Position numbers and translations under genes: made by a program. DNA of 55,610 bases, the filler included, from Bipalium vagum (lineage: Eukaryota): assembly GCA_037834085.1 (NCBI GenBank). It is 3 parts of 3 records of this genome, joined end to end, with 100 filler letters (N's around TTAATTAATTAA, not from the genome) between each part and the next. Parts side by side here need not be neighbours in the genome. Positions count along the whole stretch, not along the records: positions 16,259 to 37,420 come from JBBMKC010239426.1; 2 more parts are not named here. One strand, 5' to 3'. This document shows positions 10,101 to 52,543 of the stretch, in pieces. How positions within the stretch are numbered: the first letter of the stretch is position 1; every line of letters begins with the position of its first letter. Under the pieces are notes generated by a model that saw nothing but the letters and a program-made list of their open reading frames with translations, did no database searches and had not been told where the DNA came from.

Positions 10101-13100
10101 GCTAAAGTCAGCAAAAGTAATTTTAATTGTTACTTTTTTCAAGATTATTTTATTTTAAATTTTGGCTTTGTTGAGACAAGTCGCTTTATTAAGGTAATTT
10201 ATTGTTAATATTATACTTTTCATACGATAATTAGTGTGAATAGATTATATTGCACCGGTTGGTCATTATTAACAAATGTGAACATTGTGTGATATATGTG
10301 TGATACAATCAGTAAAGATTTCAGACTTTTATTTCAAATTAACTCAGCCAAATCAGATAGACTTTTAATGACTTAGTACTTTTTATTTTGCTTATTTTTA
10401 ATTAAAGATTTTTTAATTAAATTCCTTTAAATTTTCTCTTTTTTTGGAAATATTCTTTCAAAAATTTATTTCCTGGCTTTTTACGAATTTAGCAAATTCG
10501 ACTTTGAAAGTTTAAAAATATTTATCATAAATATTTATATAACTACATCTAAAAATTTTATAAAAAGTTATAGTAAAATAAGAATTTGTCTACTACATAA
10601 AATCTATGTTATAAACATTAATATTATAATATGAATAATTATTTTACAATCGAGTTACGACGCTAATAACAATGTTCATTTAATGTTATTATTTATTTTT
10701 AATATTTTCTTTTAAATTTATGTTCATTTGTAATTTTAAATAGAATAAATTTGGATGTTATAAAACTAACTTATTGCTAATATAATTAATAGTCTTTTCT
10801 CTTTATTGTACTGAATTACAGATGAAGATAAAATTTAATCCGACTTGATGACAAACAAGAAATATTCATCAGATATAATTTCCAGAATGAAAAAAATGTA
10901 ACAAAGATCAAATGATCAAATTTCTCAACCACATAAGTTTCGAATAGAAGACTAGATTTGATATCTCTAAGAACACAAAAATTATTTATAACTGAATTTA
11001 AAATGGAAAATGGATGAACTTCAAATTTTCAGACTTGAGGTACTTGTGGATCCCACAAAAAACACTATTTGAAAAACATTGTGGTTTTTTTTAATTCCTT
11101 CTTGTTTTCAATTTTTAAAGATTACAGCTGTCGAATTAGAAAACTAACATTCAATTCCCATCTAGCATTAACACATCTAAAATCACTCACTTTTTAGGAA
11201 CTTAACATACTTATAACATTTGAATGAATATGAAGTTGTGCAGCATCATAATTTGATTTAATAATTTTATTATTTTAATAATAAATAATAATTATAATAA
11301 TAAAAATAAAATAAAATCCCACGAAAAAATAGAAAAACAAATTTCAAAATGATAAAATTTTCGGCAGATATTGATTTGATGTTTTGATAATATTATTTTA
11401 ATTTTGTATATTTCACTGTGATCTTTATTTTATGTACTTTAAATCAATACAGCTCTGAATAAAGATATTTAATGTAAAGTCTCTACACGTGAGTAATAAA
11501 ATTTATCTTATTTTTTTCTAAAAAAAATTATATATTCATATATTATATGATTAATGCAGGGATCAAAAAGAAGAATCAATAATAACCTGATATTGAAATT
11601 AAAATTATTAGAAAATAATAAGTATTATTAACAATTAATAATTTGAAATAATCTGAATCCTGAATTAAGCAAATACTTTGGTCGCCTCAAACCATAGAAC
11701 CATGTGATATGTAGATGAAATAAACATCTAAGATTGATGACATTGACCAAAATATTTCAATAATAAATAATTAACCAAGTTGATTAAAAATTTTGATTAA
11801 TAAAAAATAACAACAACCTTTAAAATATCTTTAAAATAAAAAAAGAATAATATCAGGTGGACCGGAAAGTATTCAATTATTTAATATATCATGTATACTT
11901 ATTTAAAGTTAATTACCTAATATACCATGCATCACAGCCTGTTCAATTTTTACTTTGTTATATAATAAATTTTATGCTTTCCTAGGTTATAATAAATAAT
12001 TTTGTTTTAATTTATTTGATAAAAATTTGATAATTAAATACTCTAGATTACTAGACGTAGTAACACTCGTGGATCAAGTAATTTACTCTTTTTACTTATT
12101 TCTATTTATTATTCAAATTTGCAAGAATTTGAGACGGAATTCGTGGAATTATTCTATAATTAAATATAAATGGACCTCCAAAAATTCTTTTAGTAGTTCA
12201 TCCAAAGTGTTTGTGTGTGCAATAGCTAAGTAGTAATTATTTTGAAGGTATTACTGATAAATTATTGGTTGCAATTTTGGAAAGTTATTGAAGGCGTATT
12301 GAAAATTTATTCTGTTGAAAACATTATTTTCCATATAATGTTTTCAGCTAAAAATTTTTGTTTGGCATGAGTATTATTATATTTCTAGGTGTGTAAATCG
12401 TTTCAAGGATTGTGTTCGAATCCCAAGCGAGCTAGATAACTGAATGGTTACAATAAAGACCCGGACAGAATGTACAAGAATTCAACTGAAATCGACTAAA
12501 AATAATATTATTTTCCATTCCTTTCTTTATAATTCAATTTAGTTTTTTATTGGTTTTTTTTAAACATAAGACATAAAATGTTTTATTGCATTGTAGGTCA
12601 TTAAGTATGGTCATTTTTAAAGTCTAATATCTCTGCGAATTTTTATTCTAAAATAATAAATTTGGTTTAATATTTAGCTAAAGCAACACTCTTTCAAAAA
12701 ATCAAGACATCTATTTTAGATCAATATATGATTTGTAATATACAGGTTATAGATAATGGAAAAATTCAAAATTCGTATAGTAATGGAATAGGAGTTCCGT
12801 AGAAAATCCAAGATAGTTCAGACCGTGCAGAACATGAAGAATGTCTTCGGTGATAATGCCCCTAATCAAAGCTTTGAGATTTGAAAAATTGAGATCTGGA
12901 GATTTTGGCTTGGAAAATCAGCTCGAGGAAGACCTAAAACATCAATTTACAATGAATTGAAAGCTGTCGTGGAAAAATACTCGAGCCAAACTACCACAGA
13001 TTTAGCAACAAAATTTGGTGTTTCCGTCCAACTATTTTGGTTCATCTGCGAAAAATTAATAAAGTTAAAAATTCGACCGATAGATTCCATCGGAATTGAC

Positions 13101-14970
13101 AGATATCTATAAGAAAAAGCGTGCATGCATATCTCTCCTTTTCGGAACAAGAGTGATCCATTTTTGCTCCGTATTGTTACGTGTGACGAAAAGTGGATCC
13201 TTTATGACAATCGTAAGCGTTCTGCACAATGTTTAGATGCAAATGAACCTCCTAAAACATGTCCAAGACCAAAAATTCATCAAAAGAAGCTGATGGTTAC
13301 CGTGTGGTGGACAAGTCGTGGAGTGATGTACCACAGTTTCTTAAAACCAGATCAGTCAATCACAGCAGAGCTCAGCATTCAATTGGAAGAAATGGTGAAG
13401 AATTTGGCAAAAAAACAGCTGAAATTGGCCCATAGAGATAAACCAATTTTGCTCCATGACAATGCCCGTCCGCATGTTGAAAATCGGACTCAATTAAAAA
13501 TGTTGGAGATGGATTTGGAAACAATCGATCATCCTTCTTATTTTCCAGACTTTTCACCTACAGATTATTGTTTCTTTCCAAAAATTGGACAACTTCCTAC
13601 AAGGAAAAATTTTTAATTCCGCAGAGGCTGTTCAAAGTGTCTTCACTCAATTTATTGATTCCCTCAAATCTGAGTTTTTCGATAGAAGCATTTCCGACCT
13701 ACAAACGAGATGGCAGAAGTATATTTTTATGGTGCATACTTCGATTGAATCCATTGTTCCTTCTTAAAGATTTCTTTAATAAATGTTTTGTCTTAAATCC
13801 ATGCATTTCATACTTAATGGCCTAATAATGAGATTTTTTAAACTTTTCAGTCATTTTAGATTTAAACCTTATTTTTGGTTAAAATAATTATTTTTAACAG
13901 TAGAAGTGAATTTTAATTTTTTAAACCTTAAAGTAACAATAATTAGTAATTATATTTATAATTTATTAAAATTTGATATCTTATCTTTATATAAAATTAT
14001 GGAATGTTAACTTTTAAATATCATTGTTTAGCATGGCAACACTACTGGGCAGTTAAAGGACAACTTCTAAGAAAATCATATTTACAAAGGATTTACAAAT
14101 ATGATTCAACTATCTAAATTGAATTTCAATGACCCTAAAAAATTTTCAACTTGACAGCCTTTTGTTTAGGTTATCCAGAATATAATTAATTAATATAAGT
14201 AATAATAATAATTTATTGCACAACTATCAACATGTTTAGTTATTGCTCAGAATATCGAACTTTATTATTATTAATAAAATTATTTTGGATATTACAGTCA
14301 GTGAGAAGTCAAAAGGCACCAAAAAAGAACTCGGAGACCCGAACAACAAAGAAAAATCCAAGCCAACAAAGTTTAAGGACTAATCTTAAAAATGATTAAT
14401 GTGGAAACTCAAAAAGATATAACAATTTTGTGATAATTATAAGTGATTTTTATAAACATTCTATGTGATTCTTTACCTATTATTTTGTATTCAGTTCATT
14501 CATGTATATGTAAAATAAGAAACTATGTAAAACAAAATCCTGTAAAAAATAAAAAAACTAACAATCACTATTATATTATTATTATTATTATTATCAATTA
14601 TTTCAATATATATATTTGTAATTTAAAAATAGAAGCAATCGAGTTACTAATAACAGAAAATAAGGTAAGACAAATATACAAAAAATTAAAAAATTAAATT
14701 TTAAAAATAGATGCGATGTCTAAAAAATATATAAGGTCAGCGTACGTTTGACCAGCGGACACAAATAATCAACAAAAAGATCACGAAAACATCAAATTAT
14801 CAGGCATCTATCAAGCAGAATTAATATATAATCACGAGATATTCATTCGACGAACAGAAGGAAAATTTTACATGAATATTTTTATGCCCATTTGGATTTT
14901 AAAAAATCAACCAGACTACAGATTATCTAGTGCATCTTAAACCACGAACTATCTCGATATAAAAGTAACT
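7150..14970 (+). pseudogene. Decayed multi-exon gene relic of unknown product, interrupted by a mariner
   Basis: Exon-like blocks start after YAG acceptors and several end at GT. They read as protein with scattered stops, e.g. about 7265-7440, 8083-8280, 10822-11039, 12126-12230 (FETEFVELFYN*I*MDLQKFF**FIQSVC), 14032-14170 (WQHYWAVKGQLLRKSYLQRIY) and 14711-14940 (about 75 codons, one internal TGA). No family recognised. Confidence 0.35.
12594..13825 (+). mobile_element. mariner (DD34D) element, degenerate transposase
   Basis: Transposase from ATG 12756 with stops and frameshifts. Motifs are IVTCDEKWILYDN, KKLMVTVWW, LLHDNARPH and HPSYFPDFSPTDY, with exactly 34 residues between the last two Asp. 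Right TIR ...CATACTTAATGGCCTAA-TA ends at 13825; partial left match TAGGTCATTAAGTATG at 12594. Confidence 0.92.
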
Positions 14971-15089
14971 ATTTTCCTTATTATTTATTTATTTTTTTAT
15001 TTACTTATACATCTCTAATCTTGGCAATTTTGCACAAAATTTGCACAAGATAGTTTAAAATCCCATAATTCTCTAATAATCACTAGTTA

Positions 15090-15960
15090 TCAAACACGGG
15101 GATCTTTATTCTTTTTGTTTGAATTCTCTTATTCTTCCCTTTACCAGAGCAGTTAGGGCTGGTAAATTGCTTTAGGACTTTCTACAGCTTACTGGATAAT
15201 TGTGAAAGAATAACAGAGTTTCTTATTTAAAACTAATTGTAATCCTTAAATTTTACAAATAAAGATCTTGTTTACATTTTGATTTTGTTTACATTTTGAA
15301 ATTTTATTGAATTTTAGTTGTTCCAAATTACACTCCATAAAGCGTTCTGATTTGAAATTATTTTGAGTTTCTACCAACCCAATTTGATATTCTTAACCCC
15401 ATAGAATTATTTAATTTTAGTAGGAACTTAACATTAACAATGATTTCTTTTGTCTGTAAACAATTTTGATCCATCATATCATTCTAATTTTATATATTCA
15501 TGAACTATTAAAATCTTTATGTGTATTAATAAGCATTGATCCTGTAATAGTCAAATTTTTATAAGTATGCTAGTAAGCAGTTTATGTTTTGCTGTTCGCT
15601 TGCAAACAACTGGTTACCCAGAATTTATGCTTTCAAAGGCTGACTGAATAAAAGGAATTACTTTTCCTATATCTCTGCTTATTCATATTTATATAACTAT
15701 GTTACATGGTTAATAGATCCCATTTTCAGTCGATCCCATTCCTTTGATATAGAATGAACTTTCAGATATCTCCATTAATTTATCTTGGCTTAAGTGCAAT
15801 AAAATTCCAAAGGTCATTGATTTGTTTAAGTTAACTATTTAATTTTAACTTTTAATTATTTGACAACTTTTATTTTAAAAGTAATCTATCAATGAAACGA
15901 AAATATTAGTTATGACTATGATATGGCATTTCCCCCATTTTTTGTTTGAACAATTTATGT
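15090..15960 (-). mobile_element. Possible highly decayed LTR-retrotransposon protease/RT relic
   Basis: Minus-strand fragments resemble an aspartyl-protease region (..TGSMLI..YDGSKLFT..) followed by an SP..ALVK-like RT start. Heavily broken, weak similarity. Confidence 0.25.
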
Positions 15961-16057
15961 GGAACTATTATTCAATCAAATTGGTTTAATTCGATCTGCT
16001 TACAAAATTTAAGATTCGGTGTATAATTCAATTACAAACTATTTATACAAAAAAATT

Positions 16058-16084
16058 TATTATTATTATTAATAATTATTACTA

Positions 16085-16138
<54 letters not shown>

Positions 16139-16142
16139 TATT
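16058..16142. repeat. (ATT)n microsatellite next to contig end
   Basis: Imperfect then perfect ATT array just before the first gap. Confidence 0.95.
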
Positions 16143-16158
16143 ACAAAAAAATATCTTT

Positions 16159-16258
16159 NNNNNNNNNNNNNNNNNNNNNNNNNNNNNNNNNNNNNNNNNN
16201 NNTTAATTAATTAANNNNNNNNNNNNNNNNNNNNNNNNNNNNNNNNNNNNNNNNNNNN
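16159..16258. other. Artificial scaffold linker (N44-TTAATTAATTAA-N44)
   Basis: 44 N, a 12-mer giving stops in all six frames (16203-16214), then 44 N. Identical to the second gap. Confidence 0.98.
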
Positions 16259-16477
16259 TGTCGAATACTTTGACCATTATCCAGAGATTTGATAATATTG
16301 TATTTCACTTTCAAAGATATTTTAGTTTTTTTCATAGTTATTATTATCTAAAATAAAATTAAAATAAATTTGATTTTTAAATTAAAAGTTTTATCATAAA
16401 AATTATATTAAAATATTAAAATTATCTAATTTTTAAGCCATTATTTAAACAAAAAATTTTTTAATTATTCAAAAATA

Positions 16478-16621
16478 TGTACTTCTTACTGGTGTACTTA
16501 TTATAGAAGTTTATATAAGTAGTAAAATACAATTATAACCAAATCTATAAAAAAATTTAAAAGTCGTACTTAATAAGAATTGTACTTCTTATAGAGTATA
16601 CTTAATACGGAGGTTTGACTG
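16478..16621. mobile_element. One end of a pogo/Tigger-like MITE
   Basis: Ends in GAGGTTTGACTG-TA (inverse of TA-CAGTCAAACCTC), with repeated subterminal GTACTTA(A/T)TA-like motifs. The partner TIR was not found. Confidence 0.45.
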
Positions 16622-17933
16622 TACTTATTAATATATCGATTATATTGATCTGAAATGTGATGACTCAATGATAAGAAAATAAAAAAATGTTTCTATTGAA
16701 GTTTTAAAATAAATTTTAATTGACATTTCTCAAGTCCCTTTCATCTCATATTATTTTTTGATGCGCTCTAGCAGAATTTATCGGCGGCCTTTGATTTCAA
16801 ACGAATCGTTAAACTATTAAATTAAATACAATTGCTTGTTTAGTATTGAGTGAGCAGATCTTGTATGATAATTTATGATTAAGATACGGGTTTTAATTAA
16901 TCACAATAGCAACAAAATTAAATTTCCCAGTCCAGAAAAGTGGAAAGAATCATCGGTGTTCTGATCGATTGCAAATTTATTCATGTCTTAATCAAATCTG
17001 ATCGCCTTTGGTCCACAGAATCTGAAAAATCTTAAATATTTTCGATTTCATGTTTTTGATCAATATTTTATGTATAAAATTAAATATCAGTTTTTTAGCA
17101 CGAATGACGATAATTTTTTGTGAAGATTGATAATTTTTCTTACTATTTCCTATTTCTCAAGTAATGATTCGAGATATTTTATCCTTTTATATTTTAAATG
17201 TTCTCGAGCTCATTTTCCAAAAATACAATAAAAATCCAATACGATTTCAAAATTATTTTAGTGTTTATATTTCTATATTATTTTGGAATTATGTATATTA
17301 TTTTTATAATGATGTTTCTAAATACTATTTAGAGGTAAATAATATGTTTAAACCTTTCCATATTGACATATTTTATATATTTCCGAAAATTTTAAAAAAA
17401 TTTTCTTCGTCATTTATGATTTTTAACCAGAAATTTTAAGTTTAATTTTTTTTAATTTAATCTTCCTAGTTCTTTCCAGTGTATATTATTAAAATTAATA
17501 TTTTATTTCCACAATTTACTTAAAGAGCTTACAAAAACTTCTAATGTGACGGTGTATTGTCAAATAATCAAAGAATTTTCTGTTAAATATTCGTTAATTC
17601 TGTCTCTTTATTTCATTCTATTTCAGTGATCCAATGAAAACTCCGTTTCAATTTTGAATATTGTATTGATTTTCCGTTAATTTGTTTATAAGCTTACAAA
17701 AAAATTTTCTTATAAAAAACCGATTTTTATATGAAACTTATGAATTTATGATCGGTTCAGAATGAAGTATAATTTTTAAAAATGTATTTTTCCATATAAT
17801 AAATATTGATTGAAGAAAATAAAAAAATTCCTTGTGGATTATCAATTCTTTATATAATGAAAAAAAATTTGAACAATCAGCTTAAATTATACCGAAATGT
17901 TTTAATTATTTATATATATTGACATTTTGTTAG

Positions 17934-20900
17934 GGATGTTTAAACAACATATTTTGGCCTTTATCTGCACATTTATTATCGAAAATGGTTTTGAATGTTA
18001 ACTGTCCATTGGTGGACCCGACCCAGAAAATGGGTTTTCCATATACCGTTATAACATTACTGGTTACAATTTTCGATGAGGAGACACAAAATAGTCGGCT
18101 GGCAGCGAAAAATATCGCTTGTACCGCGAAAGTGGTTTCACCTGATCGATTGGGTAACTTAATTCTGGTCATGCAACTGTATAGTGGCGGAACGTTCAAC
18201 AAGGATCATACACAGTGGACTCGTTGCGTTGTCAAATATTTGTATGATGCCTATTCGGAAAGCAGTGCTGAATTATTATCGTTTATCAATCGAGTACTTT
18301 AAGATTTTTGCCTGGATTTAATTCTAATTATACGTTTGATAGATGTTGGTGGAATGTTCGCCGTCTATGTATAATCCAATTTTACAAGTTTTGTGTAACT
18401 TTATTTATTATATAAATATGAATGAATCTGCCGTTATTTGTCAACTTAACAAAATAATCGAAAATCTTAGCCAGATTTTCATAAATGTAAGAGATATTTT
18501 TATTGACACACGAAAGGCCTTTATATGTAGATATTTTTTATCTGCAGTCTATCCAATGGAAAGAAGTGTATCCGATTTTGCGGTTGATTGTATCGAAAAA
18601 TTCCAGTCTCACATTGCCCACAAGCAAGGTTATTGAGAGTTCGGTTTTGCTTGGTTTACCGATGGTACCTCTTCCGGAAGCAGAAACTCCACGATTAGAA
18701 TTGCCTGGGAGAGTTCTCGAATATCAGTTCGATGTCATCAGTTACTGTCACAGAAACTACGACACATTGGATTCTCAAGCAAATGTTCAAATTGATGAAT
18801 CCAGCTTAGGAAATAAAAAACTGTCATCAAATGTGAGATGTTATTTCTTTTTTAAAATTATTTTACAAAATAATTTCACATTTTCAATAGTTTTGTTCGA
18901 TTTTATTAAAAAGTTTTATTAATAAATATTTTTCTCTTTTCATTGTAAAACAAGTTTATAATAAAATGAACAGATAACCAACACTTTATTATCCTATATC
19001 CCTGGATAAATCTTATTTTCCTTTAAAAATTACAGAAATTATTTGAAATATTATTCATGTTTCTATCATAAAACTTATGTAACTATAACTTATTATTATT
19101 ATTATTTGAAAATGTTGACATTTCACAATAATTTGATTATGGAAGGTTTTTCTTATTGTGATTTTATTTAAAATTATTTGGATTCAGATATCCTTCGATA
19201 CATTGATATACAAATTAAGATATTTTTAAATACAATTTTATTGATTATCTCCAATATTATGTGGAAACACTATTTAAAAAGTCGTTCATAGTAAAAAATT
19301 CATACTGGAATATTGGTTTATTCATTTTTTCTAATATTTCATATATTTTTCTGTGAACTTCATTTATCAATATCGTTTTCAAATTAGAATGGTTTGCCAA
19401 AACAACTACAGCCTCTATGTTACATTTTAATTTTTTTCATTTGAAATTTGGTATCTCAATTTTCGTTTAATTATTTTTTGAAAATTACTTTCGATATTTT
19501 TTACACAGATGTACTACAGTTTTAAATTTTACGTCTTTTCTTGTTTCAATTTTAAGCTAGATACTTTACTTTGATATATTATTTTAACTTAATTATATTT
19601 TTCTCCACATTTCTCAGAATCTGAATGATTTTAATTGAAGATAATAAATATATTTATTATAACAAATTACTTAAAATTTTCATTTAAAAAAAATTTTCTC
19701 CTTTGTTTTATTATATTGGCAAAATTTTTTTTGGCGTACGAATTTATCTTTTATCAATGAATCTCAAATTTAGGAGGAAACAATTTATTTTCCATTTATA
19801 ATAATAAATTATTAATTTAAAAAAATTTAACCAATGTATAATATTGTTGGAAAACATGTTTATTTTAATTTTTTTATTACATTGTTTGATGGAAAAAAGT
19901 TTGATTGATTTACATAATCTCAGTATATCATTATTGCCGTATATGCAACCATAATAACTGTAACTGGCTTATTACATTAATAATTTATAAATATATATAT
20001 TATCCCAACAATTCTTTTCGAATATAATTAGTTTAGTCTCCCTAATGGTAAAACGAATACAATACAATCAATTCTATTAATTTTGGTAGATATTTTTTAT
20101 TTATCATATATTGTCATATTTAATCTGTTATTTTTGCGCTTTATAATAAAAACAAAGTTGAAGGATTTTAAAATATTTTATAAAGTACCGTATAATATAC
20201 AAATGAAAATGAATTTTTTGTGATAAAGAGTAACTTTGATAATGATAAAAACGAAAAATATGCAAATCATTATTACTAATCAAAAAACTGAAACTAGAAA
20301 TTAATTCACAAAATGGAGTAAGCAAAAATCAATAAATGATTAATGTTTTCTTTAAATAATATTTTGTATAACAATTTTAAGGAAAATTAAATTTTGAAAT
20401 TTTAAGAATACATTAAAAAATTCTTTTTTGAATTTTAAAAAATGTTCATATTAAGAAGAAAGTGTTGTTACTTTAATCCAATAATAAAGATAATTTATAG
20501 AAATCATGATACTGATTGTTAATGGCGAAGAATATTAAAGTTGACTGAAGAAGATCTAAATTAAAAAGATCAAATTAAATTAAAACATGTATCAAGATAG
20601 TATTATAAAAAATTTTGTTTGTTCAAAATTTTTTAAAAAGCGTGTATTTTAAAAATTATATAATCTCAATTAAAATATTAATAAAATATCCTTATGAAAT
20701 TAGTTTTTTTAAAAAACTTTTGTATTATCTCGTCAATTAAGATAAAATAATTTTTAAGATTAAAACAAATGTTGTTAAACAAACACTAAAACTTTTAAAG
20801 ATATGTCTAGATTTTTGTAATTTATTCTTATTTATTATTATGAATATAATTTTTCTTAGTTATATAATAAATACCATAAAAATGGTATTTAAACTACACA

Positions 20901-23881
20901 AGTTTTAATATACTATACTGAATATATTTATAATGAAAAGTTTACTACTAATTATTAGAAGTTTTATTTTAATAATTATTTATTCTTATCAAAAATTTCA
21001 AATCATTATGTAAAATAATATTTCAACACATTTCAGTTTCACAAATATACTATCTTGAAACATGTTTAGATCTCTTCCTTCAGATCATGATTTTTAAAAA
21101 TATTATCTACATTATTATTGGATAAAAGTAAGAAGAATTTTTTAAAAATCAAAGTAGTGACTCCAAAACCAATGCAAGCTAATATCGTGTACAGATTCCA
21201 ATGTCTTGGATGTGGCCATCTATACACAAGGGAGAAACAACGTCACCTAATGACACGAATTAGTGAGCATTCTCAAAAAAGTGGAAAAAGTAAAGTGTTG
21301 GATCATACTGTTAGCTGCAAAGAAAGGCAAGTAAATAAATATGCCAATGAAAATGAGATTAGTCTAGTAAAGACCAACTTTGATAACGATGAAGAAAGAA
21401 AAATATAGGAATCATTAGTAATTAAAAAACTGAAACCAAAAGTTAATTCACAAAATGGAGAAAGCAGAAATCAATGGATAATTAATGTTTTCTTTAATTA
21501 ATATTAAAAAAAAATTTGTTTAATAATTTTTAAAATATTAAAAAATGGTATTTTTAAAGTTTTTAAAATTAAAAAGTTTTTTTACTTTTATCCAATAATA
21601 ATGTAGATAATAGTTTTAAAAATCATTATAGTGATATCATTTGAAGATAGACATCGAAGACGAATAAAATTGACTGAAAAAGATCTGACAGAAGAGATCG
21701 AAACATGTTTCAAGATAGTAGTATAAATAAGATTTTGCGTGTTCGAAAATTTTTTTTTAAAAAGCGTGTATTTGAAAAAAATATATATATCCAGAACATT
21801 AATTAAGTTCCCATTGATTTTAAATTTTTTAATCAATATTTGTTTACATTGATAAAATTAGAAAATATCAGACATAAAATATAGACTAAAATTACAAGAA
21901 ATCTGAAATATTTATTAAAATTATTATTTTGTCTATTATATGATTATCATTATATGAGATTTCTGAAATTGTTTAATTAGTGTTGACAATATGTGAAAAC
22001 GATTTTTCGAATGAAATTAAAATTAAAATGATATCTTTAGGTTATTGAATTTTATTAATTTGTTTTTTGTATTGTAATTTATATTAATATTTTGTTCAAT
22101 ATATAAGATTAATATTTTATTGATATTGAATAATTATGTTGGGTTTCAAGTAAGTTGTGTACACTTTTAATTTTTTAACTTAAAACAACTAATATTTTTA
22201 TTATAGTATTAAATTTTAAAATTAAATAATTTTAATTTTTAAATATTTGATTATTTATTTAATTAATAATTAAAATTTATGAAGATTTAAATTTATAAAA
22301 ATTTTCTTCTAATTCCAATTTTCTTCTAATTATTTTTTTATAATTTATATTTTTCTAAGTTTAAAATATTAAAATGTTTTTGAATCTTAAGAAATATTAA
22401 ATTTCCATTAATTTTTAATAATCAATTCTTCAAAATTCTTTTTTGATCCGACATTATTCTAGAATAAAACCAAAGAGTTATTACTTCAACTGATTAATTA
22501 TTTTGGAACTTATGGGTACAGAATTGGATTTCCAAAAAGCCCATCGGTAAGTGTTTTTTATTTTTAATTGAAAATTAAAATATATATTTTTCATAATCAT
22601 TTGTTTAATTTGTTACAATTTTAATTTATTATTATTATTAACTTATTCAGATTAAATTAGTGGATCAGGTATTTTGCACATTTTGGATTTGGGAGCTATA
22701 TTTTAATTTTTAATCCATTTGATTTTGTTTTGATGTTTTATTAGCGAACACTTTTCAAACATTACTTTTGTTTATTTTCTGCTTATTTATTATTATAATA
22801 ACAGGACTGCTTATTAATTTTCAAATTATTCCAAATTTTCAGAAAGTAATTTCTTGGTGAAAATTATTATATTTATCTAAAATAATTGTTAAAAAGCTAA
22901 TTTTTAGTGTGCTACTTTCTTCTCTTGATTTGATTAGAAATTTTACATTTACTGACCAATAAGTCTTTTCCATACCTTAGTAATTTATTTTAAAATAAAG
23001 ATGTTCTCTATGATTTGATTTCTTATAAAAAAAATCAAATTTAAGCTAATTATTAAGAATGGAAACTTTAAAAATTGATAATATTTGATAATTGGTAAAA
23101 TTACTATCCTATAATTAAATTCAGTCTAACTACAAGACTGAAAAGTCAAAGGCTTAATCTTTTTTGGAACAGTGATCTCTATAACTGATTACCAAGCGAT
23201 TATTGATAAACCGATAATTAATTTGTTTTTTTGTTAATTCTAAAACTTTAATCAAAATAGTACAGTTTAATGAAATACAAAAATAAAATTTAAGTACTAT
23301 AACCTCGTTTATAGAGTTTCAATTGATTATGGAATTTAGTATTTTTCAATAACCTCAATTTTGATGCCAATATCTATGTATGTACTAGCTTTCATATAAT
23401 ATATTATAGGAAAAATATAGTAAGAACTTAGAAAAAATTCTTCAGTCTGCTTATTGATTGATTTAATAACAATTTTTGATAAATTATTAATTATCGTGAA
23501 TACTATTCACTAAAATTTTACTATCGATTTTTAATCAAGATCTTGTTCTGCATTACTCTAATTGTCATAAGACTAAATTCCATGAAAATCATTTTATCCA
23601 TTTAATTGTTAATAAAAATTCCAATCAAAGAACTGTATAAATATATTTTTTAAAAATCGATAATATAATCCCACACGATTTTCTTGTAACGTTTTATTTA
23701 GGTGATATTTAGCCAATCAACGGAAACTTTAGAGCATCAAGTCAGTCTCCATTCTAGTAGTGAAACAACAAGTACCAATGACATTAGCCTAGCCGGTAAA
23801 AGGATTTATTAATATTGTTTTATTGTTGTTTGTTGAAAATCAGCAAAAATTGCTATTTATAATATAATAAAATTATCAAAT

Positions 23882-23950
<69 letters not shown>

Positions 23951-26900
23951 TAAACATCATTAAATTTCTCATAACTTACAAAAACTTCAAAATATGTTGT
24001 CACAACAAAATTCTCTAAAAACCATTTATCCACTTCCTAATATCAATTTCAACAGGAATATTCCTAAATTTAAATTCCTGTCCGTCCCTCTAACGCTGAC
24101 TGATATTAAATAAGCAACGAATGTCGTGGTAGGATTTTAGAATATCAGATTTATGATCTCTGGCTGGCACCGCGAAATAATAATCAGTAATTCGATCTTC
24201 AAAAACAGACTCTGTTAAGAATGTTATCTTCACTTGTCCAGTCCATGTATAATTTAATGGTAACCGAATATTTTAATTAAAATATCAAACTGAAAATTGA
24301 TTTTTTAAATATTAATTTATGATGCTTTTGCTCATGGTTAATGGCCAAAAAAATAGAATATCGTTTATTTTGTTTATATTTCTGGTTTTTATTTTCAAAG
24401 GAAATATGAAGATAAAATAATTTTGCAAACAATTTCCGAACTGTCAACAACATTGTTGAGAATGTTTGCCTTTCTTCTCTGAGATCCAGTGATTAGCGAT
24501 TCCCTTGTTAATTATTTTTGTCATCATTTTTGTAATCTCAATCAATTAATACTTTATTGAAGAATCGAAGTTTCCAGAAAATTTTCTGTATCCGCCCACT
24601 GACTAAATTGGTTCAGTTTCTACGAGTCTATTAAAATATTGTTTGGCATTTCACATTATTCTTGTCTGTACTTTGATGAATATGAATTTCTGTCTGTAAA
24701 TTGATAGAATCGATTTGACAGTTTTCTTTGACCTTGAGTCATTAAATGTATACTGCTTTCATGCATTAAGAAGTCGGCTTTATGACAACGAAGATATTTT
24801 TTTGTTACATGGTCATCATCAATGGTAATAAATATTAGGGAAAATATGAATTTATTGAATAACTAAATTCCAATATTATTAGTACATTATTTTGACTATT
24901 GAATGATCTTTAAGATGATTTACGTCTTGATGAAACGAGCAGTGTGGAACAGGCTCAAGTTATTCGAGATCTCGATGAATATTTGGATTATCAATTGAAA
25001 ATGAATTTCTTGGATCTACCGGACAACAAATGGGTGTGTTTTTGTCTTCACTTCCGAATTCAGTTACAATATTCTGTTTCAATTTCCATTTTCTCAGGAA
25101 GAGGACAGAAAACCTTCTTGGGGAGTTCGAAGTCAATCCATAATGCATTATTGTGACTTTCCCGAATCCAACAATCTCAATCAAACTACAAGTAAAACGG
25201 TCAACAATTCGTCGACATTGGTTGACGGAACGGAAAGTCAAACAAATTATTTATCATCGCCATCAAAGACATTGCCTTGTCGCAGTCATAAGTCACCCAT
25301 CAGTAAAGCGATTGGAGGGCCCTGTAGCAGCGTTACCAGTCCTCAAATGTCCAGGTGTGAATCGTCTGTTGCAAAACCACAATCGTTATCTTTCATAAAT
25401 AGCACTCCGAATTCACAGAGTTCCTTTCTGTTTAAAACATATTCAGGTATTTTGGTTTTAGTTTTTTCTTTCATATATGTTGTCCGGGGAATGCTTGTGT
25501 TTTTGATTAATTTGATTTTTCTGACTGGAACTTGTAGACAAAATTTTCTCTTGTTATGTATCAAATTTCGATGTTTACTTGCTCTGTTTTACTTTCTTCA
25601 TTTTCAGGGATTATTTTTTACTGAAAAATTTCCTCTTCTAACAATTGATCACATTTCTTTTAGATTACATTGGAAGTAATTTTTTTTTATTTACAAATCA
25701 ATATTAAATTTTTCGGATTTTGAAATCTCAAAAATTACTTGATCAATTGATCATATTCACCTGTGTTTTGTGATATTATGGTCGTTTACATTACCTAAAA
25801 ATTAATAACTTTATAATCCTTTACAATATTCACACAATCATTATATTAATAATTTTGAAAGAAAATTAATTGTAACCATTGATCATTTTATAAAGGTTTT
25901 CTGTTAAAATATCAATAGTTTTAAATATTGAGTTGTATTCAATTGGTACTTATTCCAATGTAAACAAGTATGGTATTTAATATATTTTTAATAAAGGAAT
26001 CCAAGATCGAAAAGTGCATTGATTATCTCTTTTCTTTTTTTCCCACATCTATTAGGAGAACGTTAACAGTCGATCCAAAAAACTTTAATATTTCAGAAAA
26101 ATTGCTTTCACAAATACACATTCATAAGCGTAATTAACAAGATATAGAAATGTATATTTGATATCGGAATGAAGGTTTTCGTGTCTTCTGAATTACTTTC
26201 TGATAGGAAAACTTTTTTCCATTGAGCTGATCTTTCATTAAATATTATCAATATTTTAATGTTACCTCCTGTAAAACCATGTGAAGTCAATGTTTTATTT
26301 TATTTTAATCAAAAATACAACTGAAATTGACAATAACTTTCACTTAATGTCAGATTTAATAATGATAAAACAGGTATTTTATGATACTGAAAGGTAAAAT
26401 AATTTTAGAACGATCACATAATAATAATTATATAAAATAGTATTTATAATACTTCTCAGCATTTTGAAAAAAATAGGATTAATTCATTTTTTTGATTTGG
26501 AAAATATTATTTTTCATTATTAAAGATTGGTCTCTTGTTAAAAAGTTCTAATGGTATATTATTGATATAATTCTTTTAATTGTGTTATTGGAAATGTATC
26601 TTTAGGGAAATAATGACTGAAATATTTTAATTGAATTTTTGATAAAACATCACACCATTTTGCTTGTCTCGTTAAATTAAATTGAAAAACTTTATTGAGA
26701 ATTATTATTAAAACAATTTTGAAGTTATCATTAAAAAATTAATTATGAAATAAATAAAAATCCAACATTCTTTTTTTAAGGACTCATTGATATATTAATT
26801 ACATGTTAACAATAATAATAACTGAGGTCTTATAAATAATAAAATGATGAAAAATTATTTATGTTGTCCATTATTTATTATTAAAATTGTGATTCAATTA

Positions 26901-29900
26901 CATTTCTGATAATCTAAATCTAAGTATAGAATAAAAAATAACTAAATATACTTATAATTGGTGTTCACTGAACATTTTTATTGGTTATTACAAAAAATTG
27001 AAATAAAATTTACTTGATATTACACCTGTTTTTCGAGATAGGTGGTTATGATTAAGATTTTTGTCGTTTTATGTTCTGCTTTAATTCAAAAATGGTACAA
27101 CGTTAATCAGTTTTGATGAAAAATTTTCTTGTTTTTTCACTAATCATTTTTAAATTATCTTTATTGCACTTAATAATTAATATACGTTGTTAGTTGAAAA
27201 TTTATCGGATATGCTGGGATTCGAACACATGATCTGTCACATGCACACGGAGCGCATGGACTGCTATAACCGCTGAGCTACATCACCAAGACTAATTTTC
27301 AATTTATCTCACACCCGCTTCCTTTAGAGCTGACATCAAGACCCTTAACTACCCCAAGTCTCTTTACTTCCATTTCCATTACCATTCCATTCCTTTATTT
27401 TTTCACTTTATACCGCTGGTTGGTGTCCTGGTGTGGTCGTCATGTTAGTTGAAAATTAATCTGAGAAACTGGGATTCAAATCCAGGACCTTTCACATGCG
27501 CACGGAACACATGGACTGTTCTGACCACCGAGCTACATCCCAAAGACTAATTTTCAATTTATCTCACACACATGGCCATTGGAATTTTATTTTTCATATC
27601 TTATAGGTTATTTGTAAATATATTTTCACTATATTTTTCAAAAAAGTTCGCATTCTTTAATATTTTTTTAAACTATTGTAATCAAAGTCTGAATTCTTGA
27701 AAATATTAATTATATTTTAATAATTATGATATTAATTTAACATTTTCAAATTTCAATAACAGAAAATATTTGCAAACCTACAATTTTTCTTATTCATTTG
27801 TCTTCTGTATGGATTCAAGTGAAATTGCGATAGAGAAATTGAGATTTTTCAGGAAACCTATTTTGATGATAAAATCATCATCCAGCACTGGCAGAGAAAT
27901 TTCCCCTTTCTCTCCACATTTCAGTTGATTTAGAATTCATAGAATTTTAGATTTTTTCATGATTTTCAAGGAATATTATTATATCAAAGTATTTTTTCAA
28001 TCTTTAAAATCAGTTAGTATTTCTAAAAGGAAACAAAATGTTCACAGATTTTAAAAAAATTCATGACATGTTTTATACTAAATTGATATAGAGTCAAAAA
28101 TATAAATGTTATGATCCGTAAAACTGATCCATTTGTATAGCCTCGTACATTACTCAATAAAATTTTAATTACACAACTTGAATTTGGATATTATTCAGTA
28201 CTTGTTCCTTAAACTTTTTATGTTAATATATCGTTTTATTTTTAATAATTATTTACAGATTTCTACTATATTTTACCAAAGCCCCTTTTTATTCCAAGAC
28301 ATTCACACAATATGTAATCAAAATATTGAATTTCAATTTTTGTCTTAAAATCAAGTGATTGAAATAATAACCATAGTTAGGGAAGATTCCCAAGATAGTT
28401 ATGAATATTTGTTGTCTCGTTTTAGATGATTTATTTTTAGGTGTTTCTTTGAATAAAGTCTTCGTCCATTAATAGGGAAGTATTTCATTTCATATTTATT
28501 ATATCATTAAACTTTCAATACTGACAGCCAAACTAAATTTTTTCAATAGATCTAAATGAAAACTATAAGATAATTTCTCCTACACTCTTTTGATAAAGGA
28601 AGTCATTATTGTTTTGTAGGCTAAAATTAAACGAAAATTTTGATGTCCAAAAATAGGTTTCATTGAGAAAAAAATTTTTATTGGAGAGAATTTATTTTAT
28701 TATTTTAATGTTTGCCTTTTCATTATTATTTTCCTCTAAGGCAATTTGAAACACAATCTTATATCTCCGATTCAATTTCAATCGAATCATGGTATTTTGA
28801 AAAAATTTAAAGCTCTCAATTCGGACAAGGTTAAGTCCAAAGGAGGAAATTCAATGTCTTCTGAAGAAGAAATTGATTGGAAAAGTAATAAAAAGGCATC
28901 AAAATCAAAAATTAAAGAAGTTTCATCGTCAAGTTCTGATGAGGTCGATGATGATGAAGAAGACATTGATGATGATGAATCTTTGTGTAGAGATGAAATT
29001 AGCAGCGTTTTACATAAAAATGGAAATCAGAGACGTCGGTTGTATACATCATCGATGGTAGGGATTTCTTTCCATTTGAATTGTGCTGTGTATTGATATG
29101 TTTCTAGGAAAGAAGTAGCAGTAACACATATGAAAAAGAAACAGAATCCATTTGGTTTGAAACACTAACAAGAGCTTTAAACAGCAATTTATCTTCCGAT
29201 GAAGCTGATTCTCAGAACAATGTCACTGTTTCCGGTTGTCGCACAATTTCTTCTGAATGGTTGAGTAATTTATGGATCAAATTTCCTCTTGTATTCGAAG
29301 ATTGTTGTTCTAAATGTCGAGTTTGCATCACAGAAGCAAATTATTATCTTTCAGCTGTTAATCATTTGTCTGACATTGGATCTCAGTTTGGTAAGGAGTT
29401 TATTTTTTTAATTTTACTGATTATTATTATTATTATTATTATTTAATCTTGTTTTAATAATTACTATCGGTTATTTGATTTTAATTTTCTGATAGATTTA
29501 AAATCAATATAATCAAGTTGTTATTTACATTTTTATTGATCTTAAATGTTAACTTAATTACTTTCTAAAAAATTAGTTTTTTTAAATTGCTTCAGATTGA
29601 TGTAAGTAAAACATCAACTTTCAGTGTTCCTAGTAAATGTAATAAAAATTAGATCTTTTCTCACTTTTCTCTTTCCAACATTGGTCTACATTTTAGATTG
29701 TTATAAGGTGATATCAACAAATGGTTCTAAATGGCTAAAATATTGTCAATCTCCATTCTTAATTATTTGGTCACCATTAATAAACTGAAATTCATAAACA
29801 TACATTGATAAAGAGCTTTTGTAACATTTTGACATACATTCCATAATTTTGTAATTGATTATACTTTGGATTATAATCATTTTTTTTTTAATATTAATTT

Positions 29901-38587: not shown

Positions 38588-38631
38588 AAAATGTTATTAT
38601 CTTCACACTTTGAAGAAATCACTTGATTTTA

Positions 38632-40205
38632 ATGTTGGATCAAATACTAAGATTTTTCATTTTTTCATTCTGCTTCGTCATTTCAGTAAGATGTTTGATA
38701 CCAAATGTCTGTGTTCATAATGCCACTACTACTGGGGTTTGCTGTCCATCAGCCAAATGGTCGAGTGAAGCTTGTGGAGGTCCCAGAAGAGGAATTTGTG
38801 CCAAAGTTAATTATATTAATCAAAGAATTCCTGAAATTTTTAAGTACGATGACAGAGTAGAATGGCCTAAAAGATTTTTTCATTCGGTTTGTCATTGTAA
38901 AGACAATTTTTTTGGTTTCGCTTGTGACGAATGCTTTTATGGATGGGAAGGAAAAGATTGTGATAAACGTATACTAATTGTCCGTAGAAATTTGAAACGG
39001 TTAAGTCCCAAAGATAAATACATCGTGAGAACCGTGATAGATCGTAGCTTATATTTTCCATCTGATTATAGTATATACATAGATAAGGAAAATAAAGAAA
39101 ATGACCCAATGACAATGCCGACGAAGTGGGTTCCGGCGTCAATTCAGTACATGTTAGTATTCATTCACAGATTCGGAAGTAGAGCAACCATGTTTGAGGA
39201 TTACTTAGATTGTCAGAATTTTGGAATTCTCAATTTTAATCATGAAGCCATAGGATTTCTTACTTGGCATCGTTTTTATATGATGTTTTGGGAACGACTT
39301 CTTCAGAAAATAGCAAAAAAGGAATTTGGAATTAATAATTTTGCGTTGCCATACTGGGACTGGACTGATCAAACGTCCTGTGATATTTGCACAAATGATA
39401 TGGCAGGCGCACCTGGATTGAGACATCTCGATGGTGTACGAATTAGCCAGCAAAGTCCATTCAGTAATTGGACTGAATTTTGCGTAGAACCAGATAATTC
39501 TGATGAATCTCCCTGTTATGGATGTCATGTAACTGGAACTTATGGAACAATTACCAGAGAATGGAATAACCTCGATTTCCCAACCAGTGCTGATATAAAT
39601 TTCGTACTCTCTAAAAGAAGGTAAGACACCCTTTCAATTAGTCTTTAATGTACACCCTAAATTCTGATTGTTACAGATTTCATGTGCAAGGAGAACGAAT
39701 AACCGATATCCAATGTGAATCATTTCATAGGGCCTTAGAAGGAATGTGCGGTCAACAGGATCAAGCCAGTGATTTATTTTATATGCATAATAAGATCCAC
39801 AACATGATCGATGGTTCAATGTGTTGCAGTGGTACAGCCCCTAGCGATCCGATATTCATTTTTCATCACACTCAAATTGACAGAATCTTTGAGGTTAAAA
39901 GATTAATCACGTTTGATACTTATAATTATTTCATACAGGAATACTTAAATCGCTATAAGCCATCACTGGATGAATTTCCTGATAACAATGCTAGACCAGG
40001 ACATTCTAGGCATTCTTATCTTGTGTCGTTTTTTCCTTTGATAACTCACGCTCAACTGTTCAAAATATCAAAACCTCTGGGTTACACCTATGACGATTTC
40101 AATTTCGGAATGAAGAAAATTAATGTTGAACCTATTATCCAGCGAAGACAGAATTTGAGAAACTTCGATGATAAACATTTGGAATCACCTTTTATGTGGG
40201 ACTAA
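38632..40205 (+). CDS. tyr: Secreted tyrosinase (type-3 copper phenol oxidase), 490 aa, 3 exons
   Basis: Exons 38632-39620, 39677-39893, 39939-40205 (1473 nt). N-terminal signal peptide; Cys-rich EGF-like region (IPNVC..CCP..CGGPRRGIC..DDRVEWP..CHCKDNFFGFACDEC..GWEGKDC). CuA His in FIHRF and NHEAIGFLTWHR; LPYWDW; CuB His in MHNKIHN and DPIFIFHHTQIDRIFE. No C-terminal TM helix. Confidence 0.95.
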
Positions 40206-44458: not shown

Positions 44459-45624
44459 TTAGGTTGTCCGGAAAGTCTTTTCGGTAATCATGATAACAAA
44501 AAAGTCACAAAATTTTGTTCAACAATTAGTTTCCATCTTGTAAATAAATTTTAATAATTTAAATATTTCCCATCGCTTTTGACACACTGTTGCCATCGGG
44601 ATAATAACATGTGGTCTTGCATCATCCTGAAGCAAGATCGGCCCTTTTCGGTTTACAAGACCTGGTTGTTTTTGAATCAGTTTTGTGTGCATAGCCTCAA
44701 TTTCTTGACAGTATGACTGTGCGGTAATCGTTTCACCTGATTTCAAGAAATTGTAATGTATTAAGCCATCCTTAGACCCCCACACAGTTATAATCTTCTT
44801 GGGGTGAAGGCTTGGTTTAGACATGGTTTTCGGCTTCTCATCAGCATTTAACCATAGCGCTGATCGTCTAAGATTGTTGTACACAATCCACTTTTCGAGA
44901 CAAAAAGGGATCAATTTGGTTCAGATTTATTAATGACGAACAGATTTGCAATCGATTTTTTGTTGATTTTCTGTTAAATCAGGGGGAATCCATGAATCAA
45001 GCTTCTTAACCTTACCAATCTCTTTTAGATGGATGGAAATTGTTAATTTTGACACACAGGGAACTTGAGCAAGTTTTCTCACATTTGTTCGAGTATTTTC
45101 TTCGACAGCTGACTTCAATTGGGCTTCATTTAAGAGGGACTTGGGTCTTCCGCGGTCTTGGTTTTGGAGACTTAGGTCCCCGTCTCGAAATTTTTTGAAT
45201 CATATCTGTGTTGTTCTTTCGCTTATACTACCTTCACCCCATGCAGGATTAATGTTTCGAGTTGCTTCTGATGCATTGTGGTTAAGTTTGAACTCGTATA
45301 ATAAGCATACTCGAATTTTTTGATCAGCCATGCCTAGTAAAGAACGATAAAAAACTTTTACTTTAAATTAATATGGTTACTTTTATATTTATATTAAAGT
45401 TTGAAAGTTACTCTTTAATTTGGTATATATAAACAAACAATTTATTGTTAACCTTTGTGATTAACTTTAATTTGAAAATTAATATAAAAAATCCTCAATT
45501 TTATACTGGACAACCTAATACTATAATTTAAAAAATTACATTAACTGTTTATTGCACTCAAATAAAAAAAGCAATTAACATCTTCCACATTGCAAAAACT
45601 GAAAAGACTTTCTGGACAACCTAA
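44459..45624 (-). mobile_element. mariner element with both TIRs, internally deleted transposase
   Basis: TA-TTAGGTTGTCCGGAAAGTCTTTTC at 44457 and the inverse GAAAAGACTTTCTGGACAACCTAA-TA ending at 45624. Transposase runs from CAT 45331 (MADQKIRVCLLYEFKL..RGRP..KKLDSWIPPDLT..EKWIVYNN..LLQDDARPHV). The YSPDL/third-Asp region is deleted. Confidence 0.92.
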
Positions 45625-50299: not shown

Positions 50300-50520
50300 A
50301 TATCTCGAATTATTGAGCTCTCCGAAAAATTCGAATAAGCTAAGTGCTGGATCACATTTTTCGCATAGGAAAAAGATATACAAATGAAATTGAATTTTGA
50401 AGTAATGGTCAACGTTGGTAATGATGAGGAAAGAAAAATCTATGAATCATTACTAATCAAAAGAAATGAAATTAATTCACAAAATGCGGAAACCAATAGA
50501 TAATCATTGTTTTCTTAATT
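50300..50520 (+). mobile_element. Penelope-like GIY-YIG fragment
   Basis: RIIELS..VLDHIF..GNDEERKIYESLLIKRNEINSQNAE is clearly homologous to 21255-21495. Confidence 0.7.
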
Positions 50521-52543
50521 ATTTCGTTTTCTGCACTTCTCTTACTGTTATTTTCGTATTTGATTCCACTAACTATTTCAGTTGATCATCATACCTTTTA
50601 AACTAAAGTATACCATGATTCTGATTTCCAAGATTCCAAAATATTTTAACAAGCAATGAGTTGTGCGCTCTAAAACTGAAATTGTCCTATGCTTTGTTGA
50701 TAATTCGTGTTGAGTCTGTTGCATTATGGCCACGTTTAAATTTGTGAGATAGAATGGTGCGAAATTCATATTTAACCAATACTTAACTTCAATTCCTGAG
50801 ATTCACAAAATGTAATAATGTAAATGAACAATTATAATGATATTAAAAATAAATTTTAAATCTCCCATTTAATATATTTAACTAGGCAATTCAAACAATT
50901 CTTTTCTAAAACGAGGCATTCAAAAATAGTTACCAAAAAATCGATAATTTCAAAGGTAACAACCTATTATCATTTATAATAACAATTCTTTTTAGAAGAA
51001 TAACTTTAAAACTTTATTTATTTAATCAGGGAACACACTGAAAACTCATTGGGTTTTTAATTTCCCCGGTTTGTTAATTTTTAGTAGCGGATCTTTTATA
51101 ATAGAATAAAAATAATTCAATTTAAAGGAGATCAAATGGGGATTGTTTACAATAATAAAAAAGGAAGTACAGTGACAGTTCCAAAAGAGGAATTACATGG
51201 GAAAATTTTAATATTTTGTTCATTGGAATTGGTTAAGAATAATTTCTTATAAACTTCTTCCATGAAACCAAAATTAAATTATGTTTATCTACACTTTGGT
51301 GATAGGCTGAGACAGCTCTTGAATAAAAGCTGTAAAACCTATCAATGCTGTACCACAAAATTCTGTTGGACTCTTAATAAATAGAATGTCTTGAAGAGAA
51401 TATTTTTATACATCATTTATATTCTGATAATATAATATCTTCCGTTCATTGTCTTTTTTGAGTGTTGCAGAATTTCATAAATGGAAAACATTTGAAGTTT
51501 TTGATATTTCTAAAAGCGCGGTGTATCAGTTTTAACTATAAAACATTTTGTACGGTTTGAAATATGAAGGCCTCTCAGAGATGATAGACGATTATTGAAA
51601 ACAATTAATGTTTTTAAATGCCTTATAACAGTATGCATCAACACAATAATAACAAAGTCATTTAATGTAATTTTTTAAACCTTTTCCATTATAAATTATT
51701 AACATTTTTTAAAATTTTTTTTATTAAATATATGAATTACACATTTCATTCGTTTTGAAACGTGAGCAATTTCAGTCGATATCTATACTATCCTTTTAGA
51801 GCAATCTGATTAAGAAGTCAATAATTTGATCATGATACTTTTAAACATATGTGGGTTTTAATGTGGAACTTAGTGAAACATAACAATGAAGTTTTGTGGG
51901 CTTAAGTGTGTGTCAGGTTGCGTTTGAAATAGTAAGCTCTTCTGTAAGATTTGATATATCAATCTTTGGTTCCGGTCTCAAAAATTTAACTTATAAAAAA
52001 TTCATTTCAACTAAAATTTCCAGATCGAAATATAGGATGATTAGAAAGAAACATGTTGATTGATATAATATTATATAAATAATAAAATTAAATGAAGTAG
52101 CATATGGAAGTAACCAAGTTTTAAATTGTATATTTATATATTTATTTTATTAATAGTTGTTAAAGGCATAATAGAAGCAATGAAACAATCAATGAAAGAT
52201 AAAAATATAATATATATAACTTTAAATATGAAGGAAAATACGTGAAGTCTTTTGAAGTTTGCCGTCTCAAAATTTTAAATATTACTCTCATACCTGATCA
52301 ATGATATCAACGAGATCAACTTTCAAAATTGAAAACCGTTCTAATCTTTAAAATATATTGATTTTCTGAAATAAATAACTTTTTCAGATCAATTCTTATT
52401 ACATGTGAAACAAAATAGTATTTTATTTACAAACAGTAATGAGAAAAAAAATCCAATTGCCATATTTTGTTTTATATTCGAATGAGAGGCAAAAAGCTAA
52501 AATTAATTATATATATTAGGTAATAATTTAATTTATAAATTTA

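Follow-up and report, generated by a model that had tools for sequence, protein, structure and literature searches.

Damaged hammerhead ribozymes of a Penelope-like element in an intron of furry in Bipalium vagum likely reflect neutral decay

Minimal type I hammerhead ribozymes are known from the pseudo-long terminal repeats (pLTRs) of metazoan Penelope-like elements (PLEs), where they have low activity in vitro (Cervera and De la Pena 2014, PMC4209133). The PAc (Poseidon) hammerhead of Anolis carolinensis, from a related PLE, cleaves only with the protein of the element, and its activity is abolished by G8C (Frangieh et al. 2024, PMC11167929). Insertions of endonuclease-bearing (EN+) PLEs are typically 5'-truncated, with an adjacent inverted 5' copy and a tail at one end (Craig et al. 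2021, PMC8557442). Introns cut by a hammerhead are reported in PMC2995048 to be spliced still, while a fast hepatitis delta virus (HDV) ribozyme blocked splicing, and a preprint describes the depletion of tandem hammerhead retrozymes from Xenopus introns (bioRxiv 10.64898/2026.07.22.740005). We have analyzed three hammerhead motifs in the furry gene of Bipalium vagum (assembly GCA_037834085.1), within a stretch of 55,610 nucleotides, filler included, that we call the window. Positions count along the window, and other loci of the genome carry numbers with the prefix L. The motifs are minimal type I hammerheads of the terminal repeat of an abundant PLE family. We conclude that they are damaged, that two separate insertions, now dead, are their likely source, and that their lesions have likely arisen by neutral decay and are likely without effect on furry; we give this reading a probability of about 0.88.

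An earlier note, made from the sequence of this DNA, had derived from the three copies a hammerhead consensus with an extra A. That consensus is identical to the majority sequence of the family across the genome, with a GUU cleavage site. Searching the genome with 21560-21790 gave 1099 candidates, and the best 40 that were scored are 85-92% identical, excluding the window's own. The family consensus has the CUGANGA and GAAA core and the NUH site of a minimal type I hammerhead, and the extra nucleotide between 9 and 10.1, the G10.1-C11.1 pair and the palindromic stem and loop III are all present in the family. An exact core pattern matches the genome 163 times against 0 for the reversed control, and a looser core pattern from which the N7 of this family was excluded matches 511 times against 1. 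Nearly all of the 100 looser-pattern matches listed belong to two sister families in which stem II is GAACT/AGTTC and not GATCT/AGATC, a compensatory change from U-A to A-U, and nearly all of them have AT at the two unconstrained loop positions. Across families 94.5% of the stem cells are standard pairs in an alignment of 10 hand-picked sequences, a value as high being reached in 2 of 500 shuffles. The support from covariation amounts to one compensatory event in stem II, and stem I of the sister families is only 2-4 bp in length. The consensus thus has both the CUGANGA and GAAA elements and a covarying stem, features on which the earlier note had let its assignment stand or fall. No hammerhead was found by Rfam at E <= 10 in positions 15000-28000 of the window, nor in the intact copy L206. 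Since Rfam is silent even on an intact copy its scans say nothing about lesions, and the identification as a hammerhead is based on the pattern counts and the covariation.

The two sister families (L155-L184) are themselves abundant PLEs that share with the present family both the architecture of the hammerhead and the palindrome surrounding the likely start codon; dimers between families are conceivable. A further repeated hammerhead-like family (L229, L234-L237, L241 and L243) is without the extra nucleotide; its stem II region is long, and the loop that precedes GUC is not palindromic. Of the 42 matches to its pattern (15 in the control) about 12 come from this family.

The three motifs were found where the earlier note had placed them and with the lesions that it had described. 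Copy 2 is a complete minimal type I hammerhead apart from G8>A at position 21679. It comprises stem I TTGA/TCAA, the core CTGAAAA, the extra A, stem II GATCT/AGATC and GAAAC-AT-GTT, and its GUU site is 21707-21709. In copy 1 CTGAAGA is intact, stem II is followed by an insertion of 10 nt (20572-20581), G12>A is present and the site is GUA. On the minus strand, the inverted piece carries G12>T and a 55-nt deletion, bounded by two GAT microhomologies, that takes in CUGANGA as well as the 5' strand of stem I. This antisense piece is the most damaged of the three, and none of the three copies individually has a complete CUGANGA/GAAA core with an NUH site. The possibility that the 55-nt deletion marks a subfamily lacking CUGANGA was rejected, as its junction has a single match in the genome. 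The features of the locus are as follows.

20194..20656, + strand: copy 1, an old 5'-truncated PLE fragment of an older GUA subgroup, comprising the endonuclease end, the 3' untranslated region (UTR)/pLTR and the tail (73% identity to a young family copy; 13.6% from the old-group majority; long tree branch)
20541..20595, + strand: hammerhead remnant 1, with CUGAAGA intact, a 10-nt insertion after stem II, G12>A and a GUA site
21048..21145, - strand: inverted 5' piece, likely of the copy-2 insertion, with a hammerhead remnant (55-nt deletion removing CUGANGA; G12>T; junction once in the genome)
21132..21501, + strand: coding part of copy 2, a C-terminal GIY-YIG endonuclease fragment with CCHH-type residues and a premature stop at 21406-21408 (from translation; family copies match Pfam GIY-YIG and RVT_1)
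21502..21778, + strand: 3' UTR/pLTR and tail of copy 2, the start of the next open reading frame (ORF) unit (from the family alignment and nhmmer)
21670..21713, + strand: hammerhead remnant 2, with G8>A (21679), the palindrome at 21700-21711, a likely ORF start codon at 21705-21707 and a would-be cut after 21709

While there are three motifs, as the earlier note had it, they likely do not correspond to three insertions. A single insertion is the best reading of copy 2 together with the inverted piece, because PMC8557442 lists as typical a truncated 5' end, an inverted 5' copy next to it and a tail on one side only; this leaves two insertions as the likely number. An older element would have left copy 1 in the furry intron, and a younger one would later have inserted about 480 nt downstream, 5'-truncated and with an inverted piece at its 5' end in the known footprint of PLEs. 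Both insertions would then have mutated like any non-functional DNA.

Damage is the norm in this family, and core lesions occur at background frequency. For this, copies were chosen by their endonuclease, independently of the state of the ribozyme. This gave 2116 candidates with 150 scored matches listed, from which 70 loci were fetched to yield 37 distinct terminal-repeat hits besides the window's own. Seven of the 37 were dropped because the motif was not spanned cleanly, leaving 30 copies. At least one core lesion is present in 21 of these 30 (70%). Core substitutions are found in 18 of the copies, compared with the 19.1 expected from the flank divergence of each copy, in good agreement with the neutral decay that the earlier note had named as its alternative. 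With looser coverage (35 copies) core substitutions number 39 out of 491 and those in the flanks 266 out of 2883 (Fisher p = 0.39), and the base-matched expectation for the core is 54 against the 39 observed. The core is if anything less mutated.

The G8>A substitution of copy 2 recurs in six other copies (L008, L026, L029, L030, L094 and L139), although most of these carriers came from searches seeded with copies from the window, which biases the sample towards that variant. No shared private variants are evident in the alignment, and inheritance of G8>A from a source element is unsupported as the other carriers share none. A 3-nt deletion in the GAA-repeat core that removes G8 and A9 is also recurrent, being present in 3 of the 30 ribozyme-blind copies and in several others, and it likely arises by slippage.

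The sense copies stem from separate insertions that differ about twofold in age. In a tree of 44 sequences copy 1 groups with old copies on long branches and copy 2 with young ones. Copy 1 is 13.6% diverged from the majority of six old copies, and copy 2 is 6.2% diverged from the majority of 36 young copies, for which the median is 6.0%. Using these ages, a rough clock on a small old group, the neutral probability that both sense copies have been hit in the core is 0.55, and the probability that copy 1 had already been hit when copy 2 arrived is about 0.69.

The + strand of this region of the window is furry, with a Pfam match to MOR2-PAG1_C (E = 1e-11) and a weak match to Fry_C. The gene model has six exons and 360 codons, is free of stops and has AG/GT boundaries. 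Its first five exons are 34% identical to a furry homologue over 356 aligned columns, and furry homologues match exons on either side of the PLE locus (tblastn, blastp). A word-based homologue search with a furry exon as query gave no match, while a HMMER search did find homologues. A TAG aligned to Gln just before the exon at 22463 raised the possibility of an altered genetic code. This was rejected, since the TAG is the splice acceptor and the model is stop-free. The exons that bracket the motifs, and the intron placed between them by homology, are these.

17935-18293, 18343-18486 and 18548-18832, + strand: three furry exons upstream of the intron (Pfam MOR2-PAG1_C; tblastn and blastp homologues; AG/GT; stop-free model)
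18833..22462, + strand: putative furry intron of 3630 nt containing all three motifs (exon model by homology)
22463-22546 and 23702-23795, + strand: two furry exons downstream of the intron (tblastn matches of furry homologues; exon model)

All three motifs would thus lie within a single intron, two of them sense and one antisense, and the exon model agrees with the earlier note in placing both sense copies there. In the model there is no plausible exon in the stretch between the two sense copies.

In the furry pre-mRNA the inverted piece is transcribed ahead of copy 2. The sense RNA of 21030-21790 is predicted to form a long hairpin of -193 kcal/mol (z = -10 from 20 shuffles). Of the 32 bases at 21682-21713, 29 are paired to the inverted piece in the predicted fold (28 of these with p >= 0.98), and the copy-2 palindrome has a predicted probability of pairing with that piece of p >= 0.998. 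When copy 1 is included in the prediction the palindrome-to-palindrome pairing with copy 2 has a probability of 0.000. Copy 2 is therefore predicted to be sequestered, the stretch that runs from stem II up to the cut site being paired with its inverted piece. Because the inverted piece is made first and would pair with copy 2, a dimer of copies 1 and 2 probably never formed.

We have also examined the orientation of intact cores in other host genes. Forty loci with intact core patterns on longer contigs were used, 36 from this family and four from the sister families, and 290 of their 2131 open frames were scanned with Pfam. Of 17 loci with a match to a host gene, eight have the core on the same strand as the gene and nine on the opposite strand (p = 1.0). 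Three are bracketed by matching exons on both sides. Single intact cores lie sense within introns at L203 (growth-factor receptor) and L223 (EGF repeats), and L194 (kringle) is antisense. The skew of T versus A as a proxy for the direction of host transcription was correct in 12 of 17 cases, which is too weak; by this weak proxy the skew is positive for 14 of 23 intact and 12 of 26 broken cores (p = 0.32). At L194, which is the same place as L140, a local tandem duplication has generated two intact cores 123 nt apart, antisense in the intron of the kringle gene. This pair is a natural dimer-ready arrangement, though its stem I contains a mismatch.

Of the RT and endonuclease order of the element the window contains only the endonuclease end, the end of a GIY-YIG endonuclease being encoded by 21132-21501. 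In longer copies (L073, L085, L101 and L245) reverse transcriptase (RT) is followed by a C-terminal GIY-YIG endonuclease on the same strand. L073 matches Pfam RVT_1 (E = 2e-7) and GIY-YIG (E = 7e-5), and L245 has a DKG motif. This linkage and the 163 core matches bear out the assignment of the motifs by the earlier note to the terminal repeats of PLEs, an architecture that was already published (PMC4209133). The endonuclease translations have a CCHH motif and no CX2-5CxxC linker zinc finger, and the pLTR with hammerhead, tail and inverted 5' piece is that of an EN+ PLE. By the definitions in PMC8557442 the element appears to fit the Penelope/Poseidon pattern, as judged by its motifs; the homologues found for it carried almost no names. 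No 5' end of a full-length element was recovered from 8 contigs. A candidate target-site duplication at the insertion is indistinguishable from chance in AT-rich sequence. Two short PLE fragments of the same or a related family are present elsewhere in the window, at 50367-50521 (+) and 53319-53384 (-), comprising an endonuclease end and a tail without a hammerhead.

Compared with the hammerheads described in PMC4209133, the family has the same type I arrangement, a short helix I (4 bp here, 4-5 there), the unpaired nucleotide between 9 and 10.1, G10.1-C11.1, a palindromic 15.2-16.2 and a loop 3 with a 2-nt palindromic insertion as in D. virilis. In both cases most copies are dispersed and truncated, pairs on opposite strands lie 100-700 bp apart, and sequences vary greatly within one genome. 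The differences are that helix II is 5 bp here and 6-8 bp in the published examples, that the site here is GUU or GUA, and that the palindrome of GUU copies is 12 nt and contains the likely start codon. An active-looking variant in that study has U3 with A8 and so differs from copy 2, which has C3 with A8. Like PAc, the element is a PLE with a C-terminal GIY-YIG endonuclease, its hammerhead overlaps the start of the ORF and its tail runs into the ORF, and G8 has been shown to be essential in PAc. Unlike in PAc, the likely ATG is in loop III and the would-be cut is 2 nt after it; for PAc a protein-assisted activity has been measured. The insertion shares with the EN+ PLEs of PMC8557442 the 5' truncation, the adjacent inverted 5'-truncated copy, the tail at one end, the CCHH endonuclease and the lack of a linker zinc finger. 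It differs in that its tail asymmetry is about 58 nt rather than 30-40, and in that adjacent inverted pieces occur in just 4 of the 71 family copies examined, the window's included. Functional intronic ribozymes, such as CPEB3 (PMC10919898) and the ultraconserved amniote intronic hammerheads, are likewise self-cleaving motifs sense in a host intron. They are conserved and intact, whereas the motifs in the furry intron belong to a high-copy repeat family, are broken and show no sign of being conserved.

The earlier note had described stem III as a palindromic ACATGT. The palindrome is real, but in GUU copies it is 12 nt long and not six. The ATG of loop III opens a frame whose peptide is conserved in four families despite length differences of whole codons, and from these translations it is likely the start of the ORF. 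H17 and the next bases would form codon 2, which is TTT in 93, TAT in seven and TTC in two of 103 intact-pattern copies, and thus Phe or Tyr in 102 of them. Coding constraint is an alternative explanation for the palindrome. For a dimer of L206 ViennaRNA gives -27.8 kcal/mol for a 12-bp duplex in which G12-A14 and the cut site lie buried, as against -13.8 kcal/mol, and the inactive duplex is predicted to be favored by 6-16 kcal/mol in six of seven real copies, the seventh having a damaged stem I. Nearest-neighbor energies ignore the non-canonical contacts of the core, and so penalize the active fold. We found no statement in the literature of a 12-nt palindrome containing a start codon, and nothing on GUU/A14-U17 mispairing, although paywalled papers and supplements, those of PMC4209133 included for the palindrome, may cover them.

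The motif of an active element would use its palindrome to base-pair with the following pLTR in a tandem transcript, and would cleave as a dimer after GUU or GUA. By analogy with the published relatives, cleavage would probably be slow and helped by the protein of the element. We also raise, as a speculation that we regard as doubtful, the idea that these PLE hammerheads are default-off switches around the start codon of the element, with the 12-nt palindrome of the four families locking an inactive duplex. Such a duplex would hide the catalytic GAA and the cut site and would have to be remodeled by the protein, and a cut 2 nt past the AUG would turn a translatable mRNA into a non-translatable template.

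The earlier note had suggested that the two sense copies could dimerise and cut the furry transcript, and that the core lesions might reflect host selection against this. Such selection now appears very unlikely. It would account for a broken core in both sense copies, G8 is essential in PAc, and a fast intronic ribozyme can abort splicing (reported in PMC2995048). Yet with 70% of ribozyme-blind copies broken, two would be broken by chance about half the time; the antisense piece, which makes no ribozyme in furry RNA, is the most broken of the three; the sense copies differ about twofold in age; and a single lesion would be enough to stop a dimer, so that two were not needed. Copy 2 is predicted to be sequestered and copy 1 had about a 69% chance of being dead earlier, neither of which fits a dimer that cuts furry RNA, and intact cores lack an orientation bias. 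Every observation at this locus is accounted for by neutral decay, the lesion rate, the antisense damage, the age difference, the sequestration and the orientation included, and we favor this reading. Some of the evidence weighs against that reading. The nearest non-polymorphic flanks of copy 2 are little diverged (2 of 87), which gives a neutral chance of a core hit of only 0.29, although over 419 sites, at 6.2% divergence, this becomes 0.62. Its sole core lesion, G8>A, is at a catalytically critical base. The orientation sample is small, with 17 loci and only three bracketed by exons on both sides; the intronic sense cores sampled are all single, and the only intronic tandem pair found, at L194, is antisense. 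The depletion of tandem retrozymes from Xenopus introns makes selection on dimer-competent hammerheads in genes plausible in general. The evidence on selection here comes from one locus, and activity and folding are predictions. Among the literature matches listed there is no direct test of selection on intronic retroelement hammerheads, though paywalled papers may hold one.

A further explanation, compatible with neutral decay, is that the motif is already largely inactive in the family, vestigial or default-off, its 3' half being kept by the constraints of coding and translation start. We consider this unlikely. The conserved reading frame, the near-uniform codon 2, the short stem I of the sister families and the predicted preference for the 12-bp duplex would all be expected of it, the last being subject to the bias of the energies against the active fold. 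However, CUGANGA, the extra nucleotide, G10.1-C11.1 and stem II, with its compensatory U-A to A-U change, are kept across families, and as these parts lie upstream of the ATG coding cannot explain their retention. That the motifs are chance look-alikes in AT-rich repeat DNA would agree with the silence of Rfam, but this has a negligible probability, refuted by the pattern counts against their controls and the covariation between families, and the position of the motif in the PLE terminal repeat is as published in PMC4209133.

Some other features were seen. Two direct repeats of 127 nt, 83% alike, are present at 27188-27314 and 27443-27569 of the window; one overlaps a weak minus-strand tRNA match (E = 1.3), so this is possibly a tRNA-derived short interspersed element. 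Broken ORFs at 12885-13764 and 44522-45367 have motifs that we take to be those of mariner/Tc1 transposase. A tyrosinase gene lies at 38614-40202 (+), in two long ORFs (Pfam Tyrosinase E = 3e-19). Outside the window, fragments at L215:2205-3594 (-) in host DNA resemble a Monjiviricetes-type viral glycoprotein by Pfam and are likely what remains of an endogenous virus.

The insertion in furry is an ordinary decaying copy, and the family is another one carrying a published type of ribozyme. On the question of harm to host genes by PLE hammerheads the outcome is negative and modest, in that in this genome the core decays at the background rate and single intact sense cores persist in introns. If the doubtful idea of a default-off switch were true it would explain both the harmlessness of these ribozymes in host introns and their weakness in vitro, and the start-codon palindrome would then offer a direct test of why metazoan PLE hammerheads need protein.

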